A stretch of 64,000 nucleotides of DNA from a virus. The notes under the pieces were generated by a model, which saw only the letters and a list, made by a program, of their open reading frames with translations, was not told the origin of the DNA and did no database searches. Position numbers and translations under genes: made by a program. Below, in pieces: positions 6,392 to 43,486 of the stretch. Location of the stretch: IMG/VR virus record IMGVR_UViG_3300042542_004852, one strand, 5' to 3'. Positions within the stretch are counted from its first letter, which is position 1. The number at the start of each line of letters is the position of its first letter.

Positions 6392-6399
6392 ATCAATTT

Positions 6400-6498
6400 G
6401 AGCGCGAGGCATGGTTGCCTAAGCTGGCAGGATTGTCACCCTACAGTGTAAACTCCAAATGACAATGGAAGCAGGTTCGACTCCTGCCGCGCTCATCA
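6400..6498 (+). ncRNA. tRNA-like RNA with aberrant, expanded anticodon region
   Basis: Acceptor GAGCGCG/CGCGCTC, arm AGGCA-TGGT-TGCCT, stem ATTGTCA/TGACAAT with a 21-nt loop, T arm GCAGG-TTCGACT-CCTGC. Confidence 0.7.
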
Positions 6499-14843: not shown

Positions 14844-14919
14844 TGGTTGCAGGGGAGGGATTCGAACCCTCGATCTTTTGATTATGAGCCAAACGACTTA
14901 ACCACTTGTCCACCCTGCT
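14844..14919 (-). tRNA. tRNA-Met(CAU), initiator-like
   Basis: Loop CT-CAT-AA, unpaired 1:72 position (A:A), CCA end. Confidence 0.88.
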
Positions 14920-20113: not shown

Positions 20114-20133
20114 GAATTTATTTACACTAAAAA

Positions 20134-20222
20134 TGGTAGTTGGCGCTGGTAACGATCCAGATGGGATAAAATCCAACACGGATTATGAGTCCGCCGCTAC
20201 CGCCTGGCAGCCCCCGCCAACT
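20134..20222 (-). tRNA. Non-canonical 8/4-fold (Sec/allo-tRNA-like) tRNA with CAU anticodon
   Basis: 8-bp acceptor AGTTGGCG/CGCCAACT, 6-bp D stem with 4-nt loop, loop CT-CAT-AA, long variable arm, 4-bp T stem, ACCA end. Confidence 0.8.
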
Positions 20223-20340
20223 AAAAAATTATTAAAATTATGAAGGTTTCGGCGACTCCTACAAACGCGCTTTTATGTTTGAGCAATTTCCCTATTTGGC
20301 AGCGGGGACACAAAAGACTGAGCCAAAATTATCAAAAAGA

Positions 20341-20427
20341 TGGTACCGATAGCCAGGATCGAACTGGCAAGGAGTTTCCTCCAGCAGATTTTAAGTCTGC
20401 TGTGTTTACCTATTTCACCATATCGGC
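20341..20427 (-). tRNA. tRNA-Leu(UAA)
   Basis: Canonical class II cloverleaf, loop CT-TAA-AA, CCA end. Confidence 0.93.
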
Positions 20428-20569
20428 TTTGATTCTATTAAAGATCAAAAGTTTTCTAACTTCGGACGGCGAAGCGTCTTGGAACAACTCTATTATACTC
20501 TAGCTTTTTTGTTTGTCAAGGATTGATTATCTTTCATAATCATTGTGTATATTTAAAAAAGGAGTTTTT

Positions 20570-30661: not shown

Positions 30662-30774
30662 TGGTAAGTGCGACAAGATTTGAACTTGCACTATACACGG
30701 TATCCTTACGGCTGGTTTGGTATAGGGAACTTGGCTCATGAAACCAAGGCGTCTTTGCATTTCGCCACGCACTT
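30662..30774 (-). tRNA. 113-nt tRNA with Leu-type body, CAU anticodon and oversized variable arm
   Basis: Acceptor AAGTGCG/CGCACTT-ACCA, D arm GCG-AAATGCAAAGA-CGC, loop TT-CAT-GA, about 40-nt variable region (CTATAC/GTATAG), T arm GCAAG-TTCAAAT-CTTGT. Confidence 0.8.
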
Positions 30775-40532: not shown

Positions 40533-41177
40533 TTAATATCCAAAAGCGTCAAGTGTGTATTTGAAGGGATTGCCTTCAATGTTTTTAACGAGGTCGAGCA
40601 TATTAGCGACTAACTCTCTAGTTTCTTGTTGAGCATCTTTTTTTAGGCGAAGACTGCACAGGTGAATAAAAGCTTGTAAGCTGCCAGTCCAGATAAATTT
40701 GGTTTCTAGTGCAAGAGGAAGATGAATTCTGCATTGTTCTTTAGCGATGCCAAATTCACTCATTTCATTGTAAACTTTCTGAGCTTGTTCAATTACAGAA
40801 CGCATCTTAGAAAGAAAATATTCATTTTTATCTTCGGGAATGTCGCCAGCACTTCCTTGTTTACTGTCTTGAGATTGAAAACGAAGTTTTTCAGGAAGCC
40901 AGTAAGAGTCAGAAAAATCTACATATCTGCCGCTAATGCTATTACGCGCCCATCCAATTTGATGAGTAAATAATTGACGTTCTACAAAAATAGGACACTC
41001 AATTCTAAATTGAAGTTGTGGGTGTCTAAAAGGAGAAGTGTGCCCATGTTTGGCAAGAAAATTAATAAGCTTTGCATCTTTTTCTCCAAGCTCTGCGCTC
41101 TCTTTGTTATAGGAAACTCTAGCGATATTTGCGATCATTAGATCGCTGCCGAAATGATTAAGTAATTCTGCTTTCAT
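40533..41177 (-). CDS. thyX: FAD-dependent thymidylate synthase
   Basis: ARVSY, HTSPFRH, PIFVERQLFTH...NSISGRY, LRL...AQ.E. Confidence 0.92.
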   Translation of the reverse strand: MKAELLNHFGSDLMIANIARVSYNKESAELGEKDAKLINFLAKHGHTSPFRHPQLQFRIECPIFVERQLFTHQIGWARNSISGRYVDFSDSYWLPEKLRFQSQDSKQGSAGDIPEDKNEYFLSKMRSVIEQAQKVYNEMSEFGIAKEQCRIHLPLALETKFIWTGSLQAFIHLCSLRLKKDAQQETRELVANMLDLVKNIEGNPFKYTLDAFGY

Positions 41178-41942: not shown

Positions 41943-42857
41943 TTATGCAGAGATTTTTTCCTTTGTCAACTCGCGAATGCGAAAAATAGCTTGGCATTTA
42001 TGTTTAAGCTCTACATCAAAATAAACATTTCGGCCATAGTTGTTAGGAATTGAAACTGGCATGTCAGCATGCTTGCGAGTGCCGTCAATGCCCTCGCTGT
42101 AATGGAAGATGGGTGCAACAGGCCAAGTGTCATAAGCAAGATTGAAGGCTTCTTCGGCACTCAAGTCGTCATGCAAAATACTATGATGCAATGAATCATA
42201 AGTGACAGGAATCTTGCGCGAATTATAAAAGTACTTGATAAGATTCTTGATGCCCCAAACACCTTTGGCATTGTCATTGTTTTCTAGCACAAGACGTTGA
42301 CGGATATTGTCGGGAAGAGAATCATAAACACTCAAAACTTTATCAGCGAGTTTTTGAGGCTCTGATGTTTCCTGTCTTACATGTATGTTAAGAGGTGAAC
42401 GATAGTCTTGCGGCAAATCAAGCAGGTCAAAAATCTCTGCATGCTGCTGTAGGTCAAGAATGCTGTTGTTGATGCAGTCTTGATTGCTGGAAGATAGCGT
42501 AATGTATTCGCTTGGGTGCGCTGACAAACGAATCGGATGAGAAGAGAGCAACTGCTTGATTGAATTGCATACAGCAACAATGCCTGCATAATTGGGCAAG
42601 TCTGCAATGCGAAGCAGCACATCTTTGTGCGTTAGAACTGGAGCAAGAGAAGACGAGAGACGATAGCCTTGAATATTATTCAGTTGGCAAAAACGAATAG
42701 TATTGAGTGTCATCTTGAAATTATGCAAGATTCGCTCGGAAAGCTCTTGTATAGCAACATTACGAGGCAGCTTGGCAAACTGCGTGTAAGTCATGGAGCG
42801 AAAATTCTGCCCGTTGTCAGACAGTGTTTTTGAGATGCAGCAAAGTGATAGGTTCAT
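41943..42857 (-). CDS. uvsE: UV damage endonuclease UvsE/UvdE
   Basis: LCCI, YRLSS, RLSAHP, NIHV, LENND, YDSLHH, FHYSE, KHAD, DVELKHK. Confidence 0.92.
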   Translation of the reverse strand: MNLSLCCISKTLSDNGQNFRSMTYTQFAKLPRNVAIQELSERILHNFKMTLNTIRFCQLNNIQGYRLSSSLAPVLTHKDVLLRIADLPNYAGIVAVCNSIKQLLSSHPIRLSAHPSEYITLSSSNQDCINNSILDLQQHAEIFDLLDLPQDYRSPLNIHVRQETSEPQKLADKVLSVYDSLPDNIRQRLVLENNDNAKGVWGIKNLIKYFYNSRKIPVTYDSLHHSILHDDLSAEEAFNLAYDTWPVAPIFHYSEGIDGTRKHADMPVSIPNNYGRNVYFDVELKHKCQAIFRIRELTKEKISA

Positions 42858-42898: not shown

Positions 42899-43486
42899 TT
42901 AATAATTGGGCTGCGAGCAAAGAATATGATTAATTTCTTCTTTGATTTTTTTAATAATTCTATGTTTGGCAATATAAATAGCGCTAGAATTGATCTTGTA
43001 TTTAAGCATTAGATTTTCATTTTTTAAATCATTAAAGTACAAATCATTAAAAATCATATAGTCTTTGCTTTTATGATCTCTGCCTAGATTTTCAAAAGCT
43101 TGCATGAGAAGCTCTCTCTGATAAGATTTTTCTTGCGAAGCAAGAAAATCTTGTTTTTCATCAGGATGCATTTCCATCAAAAGATCATCGCCGCTGGTGA
43201 TTCGCTTGTTTTTCCTTTGATTGCGACGAATAATATCCACCATGCGCCACTTGGCGAATGTTGTTACCCAAGAATGAATCTTGCCTTTGGCAGAGTCGAA
43301 CTTGTTTTCTTTGAAGTAGCTTGCCATTGAAACAAACACTTCTTGCACAACGTCATCAACGTCCTGTGAAGGCAGCTTATAGGAGTAAGCTAATGATCTT
43401 AGATACTCATTAAATTGAGTAAAAAAATCATTCCAACCTTGGCTGTTCCCCCAATCGGAAAGCTCTTGTTCTTTGAATTCGCTCAT
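42899..43486 (-). CDS. ECF-type sigma-70 factor (PVC-like)
   Basis: GWNDF...DVDDVVQEVF...FDSAKGKIHSW...WRMVDIIRR region 2 and IYIAKHRI region 4. Confidence 0.85.
   Translation of the reverse strand: MSEFKEQELSDWGNSQGWNDFFTQFNEYLRSLAYSYKLPSQDVDDVVQEVFVSMASYFKENKFDSAKGKIHSWVTTFAKWRMVDIIRRNQRKNKRITSGDDLLMEMHPDEKQDFLASQEKSYQRELLMQAFENLGRDHKSKDYMIFNDLYFNDLKNENLMLKYKINSSAIYIAKHRIIKKIKEEINHILCSQPNY

Follow-up and report, generated by a model that had tools for sequence, protein, structure and literature searches.

A 64,000-nucleotide stretch of DNA from an uncultured lake phage (hereafter the window) encodes a real, intact tRNA gene, confirmed here, in which a CAU anticodon is carried on a rare selenocysteine-like body whose acceptor and T stems are split 8/4. 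Direct observation covers the fold of this tRNA and its conservation through compensatory changes, as well as the horizontal distribution of the gene, the polymorphism of its insertion and the layout of its operon. We read it as a functional tRNA from a small family whose members pass between freshwater phages that are not related to each other. Most likely the host MetRS charges it and it acts at AUG as an elongator tRNA-Met, either an additional one or a replacement; this reading as a whole is tentative, with a probability of roughly 0.45. The gene and its defining elements are:

20134..20222, minus strand: (8/4) long-arm tRNA gene with anticodon CAU, 89 nt, from ARAGORN and a manual fold
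20185-20187, minus strand: CAU anticodon of the 8/4 tRNA, read from the sequence
20134-20136, minus strand: encoded CCA of the 8/4 tRNA, preceded by discriminator A73, read from the sequence

Reading of the sequence pairs nt 1-8 with nt 78-85 in an acceptor stem with 8/8 Watson-Crick pairs. A 3-nt connector (GGG) leads to a D stem of 6 bp, one of them G.U, which is closed by the 4-nt loop AGGC and followed by a single unpaired G. The anticodon stem has 5 bp, including one G.U, around the loop CU-CAU-AA, the variable region of 17 nt contains a 4-bp stem, and the T stem comprises 4 bp (CUGG/CCAG) with the loop AUCGUUA. All 27 pairs are intact. In place of the usual T54/A58, the T loop carries A54 with U58, or with A58 in the homologue described below. 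ARAGORN labels 20222..20134 as tRNA-Met(cat), and its own drawing has eight pairs in the acceptor stem and four in the T stem; it made no call on 3.84 Mb of dinucleotide-shuffled window sequence. The free energy of the cloverleaf exceeds the minimum by 0.7 kcal/mol (<1 kcal/mol in both homologues), while the single-sequence fold z-score of -1.76 is a statistic that is uninformative for tRNAs. Refolding the window copy as 7/5 requires a U.C pair and leaves G8 unpaired.

The shuffle null, the 8/4 drawing by ARAGORN and the fold together confirm the observation with which the preliminary description began: the 8-bp acceptor, 4-bp T stem, 6-bp D stem with 4-nt loop, long arm, ATCG T loop, CAU and ACCA that it listed are all in the sequence. 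Its view of the gene as a genuine 8/4 long-arm tRNA of Sec-like or allo-type with a CAU anticodon is likewise upheld by the drawing, by the 27 pairs kept in the homologue and by the mismatch in the 7/5 alternative. The Rfam models for tRNA (RF00005) and tRNA-Sec (RF01852) gave no match to it at E <= 10, with either 97 nt or 251 nt as the query. A remnant of an attP site is rejected since the gene is full length and has a perfect acceptor stem. An initiator tRNA is also ruled out: positions 1:72 are paired (A-U or G.U) with no 1x72 mismatch, and of the three G-C pairs of the initiator type at 29-31:39-41 the tRNA has G29-C41 and G30-C40 but A31-U39.

The tRNA belongs, as a variant, with the (8/4) allo-type tRNAs that Mukai et al. 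described in 2017, and has the features at the core of their definition. This likeness was judged from the structural description of allo-tRNAs in that paper (PMC5389517). As described there, the allo-tRNAs resemble the window tRNA in their 12-bp branch, divided 8/4, and in their Sec-like D arm and long variable arm; they too occur in phage tRNA regions and carry a non-Ser anticodon, and the phage (8/4) tRNAs reported were tRNA-Ser and tRNA-His (PMC5389517; review PMC7609411). Most allo-tRNAs have G73 or U73, a mark of Ser identity, whereas the window tRNA and its homologue have A73 (PMC5389517). The anticodon stem of allo-tRNAs is described as lengthened as in tRNA-Sec, whereas here it has 5 bp and the flanking G28/G46 cannot pair; the A54/A60 T loop is a further departure from that description. 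The published examples also came to light as high-scoring false positives of tRNA-Sec searches (PMC5389517), whereas the window tRNA has no detectable score against the Rfam tRNA-Sec model. Bacterial tRNA-Sec (selC, RF01852) has the same 8-bp acceptor, 6-bp D stem with 4-nt loop and long variable arm; it differs in its 5-bp T stem (a 13-bp branch, 8/5), its UCA anticodon and G73, against 4 bp (12 in the branch), CAU, A73 and no RF01852 match in the window tRNA. No paper on a phage CAU tRNA with an 8/4 scaffold was found in a search of paper texts; the 35 published allo-tRNA anticodons are listed in a figure.

A single homologue was found, at L042:4728-4817, on a 62-kb phage contig (genome G006) of 33% GC whose completeness is estimated at 24%. 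It was found with a pattern that kept the inner anticodon arm and relaxed the T loop. R1, a model for which the window copy was the sole input, scores 119.5 bits on that copy and 93.1 bits on the L042 copy, without a non-canonical pair in the latter. ARAGORN made no call on the L042 copy, and Rfam gave no match to it at E <= 1. The two phages are otherwise unlike: none of the 68 ORFs of the L042 contig shares a protein with the window by tblastn at E <= 1e-5, and blastn of contig against window aligned the tRNA alone.

The copies are 83% identical, differing in 15/90 columns. All nine differences in stems preserve pairing, so that 54/54 cells are paired, against 30-57% in a control in which the partners were slid. 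Four pairs are changed on both sides, namely acceptor 7:66 (C-G to U-A), the second T-stem pair (U-A to A-U) and two in the variable arm, while 1:72 goes from A-U to G.U. Every pair of the 12-bp acceptor/T branch split 8/4 is kept in both copies, and in both the 7/5 alternative leaves a U.C mismatch and an extra T pair open. In a shuffle control, 26/500 shuffles of the two sequences reached the observed covariation values; covariation statistics are weak because the family has only two members, and the D-stem helix shows no covariation because it is invariant. The loop CUCAUAA, A73 and CCA are identical in the two, and the L042 copy has its own D loop (CGGC, against AGGC in the window), T loop (AUCGACA) and variable-arm stem, the variable region ranging over 17-18 nt. 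That a diverged copy in an unrelated phage keeps the fold marks this as a selected, mobile tRNA.

The differences are unevenly spread. Only 1/42 columns differ in the D and anticodon arms, against 14/48 elsewhere (Fisher p = 5e-4); 29% of columns differ across the acceptor, variable and T arms, and the variable arm is the least conserved part. Columns 8-49, which span the D arm, the anticodon arm and the start of the variable region, are identical save for one D-loop base. Judged from the two sequences, the conserved lower half may reflect either sequence-specific reading by some protein or recombinant genes, and the near-identical 5' half could thus be a product of recombination rather than of selection.

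In the search for further relatives, an exact 22-mer of the 8/4 tRNA gave no match. A pattern with the D, anticodon and T loops of the window copy itself returned chance matches, and no tRNA, from IMG/VR, 185k species genomes and JGI metagenomes; since the homologue has CGGC and AUCGACA this pattern was too strict, and its nulls do not establish absence from these genomes and metagenomes. A relaxed pattern recovered the L042 copy and one chance match only. BLAST against GenBank phages and PLSDB plasmids yielded anticodon-arm fragments only, and the flanks of the L042 copy had no BLAST match. R1 revealed no paralogue in the window, its sister contigs or the nearest records, and no 8/4 relative in 151 Pseudomonadota and 151 Bacteroidota genomes, where its matches were confined to canonical tRNA-Leu, tRNA-Met and one Ile2-type gene. 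The top bacterial matches were tRNA-Leu(UAA/CAA) at 31-38 bits, with the common CGGA/UCCG anticodon stem, A73 and a long arm; the others were tRNAs of the GGCGGGG...GCUACCA type and one of the GGGCCC type.

In the window, the tRNA lies between a strong promoter and a protein gene, in the following arrangement:

20492..20519, minus strand: sigma-70-type promoter TTGACA-16-TATAAT, 12/12 positions, kept in sister contigs
20341..20427, minus strand: tRNA-Leu(UAA), canonical class II, first gene of the unit (ARAGORN; Rfam RF00005, 59.1 bits)
20223..20340, minus strand: spacer of 118 nt from tRNA-Leu to the 8/4 tRNA, with no relative and no RNA family match
20130..20327, minus strand: insertion of ~198 nt (spacer and tRNA), present only in the window and lacking from L001-L003
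19640..20113, minus strand: Peptidase_M10-like gene of 157 aa, first protein gene downstream (Pfam PF00413, E = 6e-11)

The preliminary description had placed the 8/4 tRNA behind the promoter of tRNA-Leu(UAA), and this placement holds: the promoter matches at 12/12 positions (20519..20492), it is retained in the sister contigs, and the only terminator-like site between it and the 8/4 tRNA is a false one formed by the tRNA's own anticodon arm. The ATG of the peptidase gene follows the CCA by 20 nt. The spacer gave only chance words by blastn-short against all loci gathered. The same order recurs in L042 (L042:3356-4817), where an 11/12 promoter is followed by a tRNA-Leu(UAA) and, 1.25 kb downstream on the same strand, by the 8/4 tRNA. 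Both phages thus have a strong promoter, then tRNA-Leu(UAA), then the 8/4 tRNA on that strand; the tRNA-Leu(UAA) of L042 is ~70% identical to that of the window (cmscan, 54.9 bits). Three small ORFs without known function lie between the two tRNAs in L042.

Three IMG/VR sister contigs (L001-L003), whose peptidase gene is 83-84% identical, reveal that this stretch is changeable. By alignment, all three keep the promoter and a tRNA-Leu(UAA), which runs directly into the peptidase gene; L001 and L002 keep the tRNA-Leu(UAA) of the window, and L003 has a different one in the slot. Contigs from four lake metagenomes contain the insert-bearing form as a minority next to insert-less forms, at a depth of 6-14 against 12-85 for the flanks, and without sequence differences. 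A unitig with identical flanks stops precisely at 20134, the final base of the CCA, and a joint 20135->20346 in lake contigs reproduces the insert-less form. More joints were seen at 20134->20234, 20134->20492 and 20131->20438, and these suggest other cassettes in the slot. The break points fall at the ends of tRNA genes. Three forms of the slot were recorded, with tRNA-Leu alone (L001/L002), with another tRNA-Leu(UAA) (L003) and with tRNA-Leu plus the 8/4 tRNA (window). The insertion polymorphism and the varied tRNA content define the stretch from promoter to peptidase as a variable tRNA slot, in which the 8/4 tRNA behaves as an accessory gene of part of the phage population. Neither the strain-specific insertion nor the L042 homologue figured in the preliminary description.

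The sequencing runs that hold this sequence are lake-water metagenomes; among the public runs listed, none is recorded as RNA, which is neutral on expression. The window encodes tail genes and cell-wall hydrolases, together with a DUF1501/PSCyt2/PSD1 pair typical of Planctomycetes and Verrucomicrobia. It also encodes, all on the minus strand, a sigma-70 region-2 protein (42899-43486), ThyX (40533-41177) and a UvdE-type UV endonuclease (41943-42857). No synthetase, TilS, RNA-repair, toxin or nuclease gene was found within it. Besides tRNA-Leu(UAA) it has a tRNA-Arg(UCU), and all its tRNA genes encode CCA. Across the two phages, AGA accounts for 35-46% of the codons for Arg, UUA for 24-39% of those for Leu and AUA for 11-17% of those for Ile.

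Three CAU-bearing tRNA-like genes are present in the window, at 14844-14919, 20134-20222 and 30662-30774. The first (minus strand) is a canonical CAU tRNA with an A1xA72 mismatch and an A/U-rich anticodon stem, and is unlike the initiator, elongator-Met and Ile2 types of the sampled bacterial genomes. Its relatives in GenBank are annotated only as 'tRNA-Met', a label that does not separate Met from Ile2. The gene at 30662-30774 (minus strand) spans 113 nt; its loop is UUCAUGA (CAU) and its extra arm is very long. R1 does not match it, and its sequence is unrelated to the 8/4 tRNA. A further ARAGORN call at 6399-6497 (plus strand) is a 99-nt 'tRNA-???' with a four-base anticodon.

How would such a tRNA be made and used? 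The consensus promoter at 20519..20492 would transcribe tRNA-Leu(UAA), the 8/4 tRNA and the downstream peptidase operon together. Host tRNA-processing enzymes would then excise the 8/4 tRNA, whose 12-bp stack and encoded CCA are intact. The product would adopt an L-shape. Its acceptor/T helix, divided 8/4, would have the canonical 12 bp, the D stem would be Sec-like, with 6 bp closed by a tetraloop, and an extra arm would be present. Host MetRS would read CAU and A73 and charge it with Met, and its own CAU anticodon would decode, making the tRNA a cognate adaptor and no missense device. Such bodies are usable in a bacterial cell: 8/4 tRNAs in E. coli were processed, charged and used by EF-Tu and ribosomes (PMC5389517).

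Methionine is favoured in part by what MetRS reads. The enzyme needs little beyond CAU: E. coli MetRS charges tRNA-Met and a CAU-bearing tRNA-Val with equal efficiency, and it also charges tRNA-Ile2 when this is unmodified (PMC9976931). Its determinants, CAU and A73, are both in the sequence of the 8/4 tRNA (PMC9976931). Comparison with bacterial CAU tRNAs was anchored in one genome (G041) that holds all three CAU classes, an initiator (L075), a GGGCCC type (L063) and a GGCGGGG type (L058), so that by elimination the GGGCCC type is Ile2 and the GGCGGGG type elongator Met. Elongator tRNA-Met shares CAU, G2-C71 and D-stem pairs starting GCU.../...AGC with the 8/4 tRNA; in four examples from Pseudomonadota and Bacteroidota (L050, L051, L087, L089) positions 1:72 also form a weak pair, with U72, ahead of A73-CCA, and two of them (L050, L051) have an identical anticodon stem, GCGGA/UCCGU. 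Elongator tRNA-Met differs in having U32 or A32 where the 8/4 tRNA has C32. Canonical tRNA-Met is moreover a 7/5 class I molecule whose variable loop is short, whose D stem of 4 bp closes a large loop and whose T loop has T54/A58, unlike the 8/4 tRNA, which shows neither the 7/5 class-I cloverleaf nor the RF00005 match of the elongator tRNA-Met family. The other CAU-bearing genes of the window, the canonical tRNA at 14844-14919 and the tRNA-like gene at 30662-30774, count against the proposed reading, as does the unusual T loop with A54. On balance, the likeness to elongator tRNA-Met, the reading of CAU by MetRS and the weight of A73 against Ser lead us to lean towards Met, with Ile as the first rival and missense insertion unlikely.

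The Ile alternative is that the gene is equivalent to tRNA-Ile2: host TilS would make lysidine at C34, IleRS would charge the tRNA, and AUA would be read; together with Leu(UAA) and Arg(UCU), the tRNA would help with A-ending codons, which are poorly read in a host richer in GC. One point in its favour is the anticodon arm. That of a Bacteroidota Ile2-type tRNA (L088), GCGGA-CUCAUAA-UCCGC, is the same as that of the 8/4 tRNA at 16/17 positions, C32 among them; bacterial tRNA-Ile2, the class to which E. coli ileX belongs, shares the loop CUCAUAA and A73, and the Ile2-type tRNA of G041 (L063) likewise has G27.U43 and C32. With near-identical arms in both tRNA types, however, the anticodon arm leaves Met versus Ile undecided. 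The CGGA/UCCG anticodon stem is used by tRNA-Leu(UAA) of two phyla (L048, L086), by the window's own at 20341-20427, by elongator tRNA-Met and by one Ile2-type tRNA. Being common to several isotypes, the stem says little on identity, although E. coli sequences taken by themselves would indicate otherwise.

The setting also speaks for Ile. The 8/4 tRNA is linked to tRNA-Leu(UAA) in both phages and is accompanied by tRNA-Arg(UCU) in the window, and AGA, UUA and AUA are well used in the two phages; this company, with A-ending codons heavily used, is more what would be expected beside a reader of AUA than beside an additional reader of AUG. Invariant D and anticodon arms would suit readers of the lower half such as TilS CTD1 and IleRS (PMC11947777, PMC9976931). 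The acceptor and body stand on the other side. Ile2-type acceptors (L063, L088) are GGGCCC, with G1-C72, C4-G69 and C5-G68, whereas the 8/4 tRNA has A/G-GUUGG, with U4-A69, G5-C68 and a weak 1:72 pair with U72, and the acceptor pairs 3:70 to 5:68 are what type I TilS reads (PMC11947777). The tRNA-Ile2 body is canonical 7/5 class I, and that of the 8/4 tRNA is not. Of the E. coli IleRS/TilS determinants, C4-G69 and C29-G41 (minor ones for IleRS), C5-G68 and D-loop G16/D20/D21 are all absent (PMC9976931, PMC11947777), their places being taken by U4-A69, G5-C68, G29-C41 and the tetraloop. Since such determinants vary between species (PMC11947777), their absence is weak evidence. We regard an Ile2 equivalent as the less likely reading.

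A role outside decoding is somewhat less probable again, and we consider it unlikely. The tRNA might be a decoy or sponge for a tRNA nuclease or toxin, a body-swapped tRNA-Met that escapes a nuclease, or a processing signal that releases the downstream mRNA. Phage tRNAs counter tRNA-cleaving defences (PMC10264068, PMC11464382, PMC11555353), and a bacterial Schlafen nuclease cuts tRNA-Met(CAU) in the anticodon arm (PMC13056530). Like many counter-defence genes, the 8/4 tRNA is accessory and its insertion polymorphic; further tRNA-shaped RNAs occur in the same phage, and the gene lies 20 nt in front of a protein gene. A sponge or punctuation mark would not, however, need the perfect 7-nt loop (U33, CAU, A37), A73 and CCA that are identical in the homologues, and the window lacks any nuclease, toxin or RNA-repair gene that could be found. 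An escaping version that still works as tRNA-Met is no true rival of the Met reading.

A related and similarly unlikely idea starts from the body. A Sec-like body may uncouple a CAU tRNA from the handling of host tRNA-Met, with one of two outcomes. An anticodon-blind synthetase might charge it wholly or partly and so recode some AUG or AUA codons; or it might be a body-swapped tRNA-Met or tRNA-Ile2 that evades host nucleases or toxins, a counter-defence cassette of ~100 nt traded between unrelated lake phages.

The preliminary description had proposed that a residue other than Met is inserted, with SerRS or LeuRS as the charging enzyme, and this finds no support. Under that proposal the tRNA would be a deliberate missense device, charged regardless of its anticodon by SerRS (through the long arm), LeuRS (through A73) or another synthetase, and would place another residue at AUG. 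Its class II scaffold and its best bacterial R1 matches, the tRNA-Leu(UAA/CAA) genes, are in keeping with this, and in E. coli, allo-tRNAs whose anticodon is not one for Ser have been found to insert Ser or Ala (PMC5389517). In that work, however, Ser was inserted only by a G73 variant (PMC5389517), whereas the window tRNA has A73, a listed SerRS antideterminant, shown for human tRNA-Leu (PMC9976931, table 3). Any CAU tRNA would also face strong competition from MetRS (PMC9976931). The G3:U70 pair for AlaRS is lacking, the variable arm is the least conserved part of the molecule, and the 6-bp Sec-like D stem with its tetraloop is unlike that of tRNA-Leu. The D-loop features that E. coli LeuRS is reported to use for tRNA-Leu identity are missing from the Sec-like D arm. 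A missense role is accordingly improbable. The other proposals of the preliminary description, a reading of AUA after lysidine formation and a nuclease-resistant or decoy tRNA, stay among the rivals considered above. Least probable of all is a recently acquired, functionless and neutral passenger heading for decay: the gene is carried by only a minority of the population, is absent from the sister contigs and shows no sequence variation within the phage population, so that selection is unreadable there, but it is fully intact, and a diverged copy in L042 that keeps every pair by compensatory changes is not expected of a decaying sequence.

Read as a tRNA of a small mobile family, and most likely as a tRNA-Met, the gene adds a CAU tRNA to those phage tRNAs, for Ser and His, in which the 8/4 Sec-like scaffold was already known. 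The fold is kept across unrelated freshwater phages, and within one phage population the gene comes and goes as a cassette of ~100-200 nt. Since the Rfam tRNA and tRNA-Sec models miss both copies, phage tRNA inventories and analyses of codon compensation undercount such genes. Of all anticodons, CAU alone takes its meaning (Met, fMet or Ile) from the body of the tRNA; on a foreign body it offers a clean natural experiment on the features that MetRS, TilS and IleRS read. Known phage tRNAs escape host tRNA nucleases through changes in the anticodon loop; if a change of body also evades these enzymes, it would be a new route of counter-defence.
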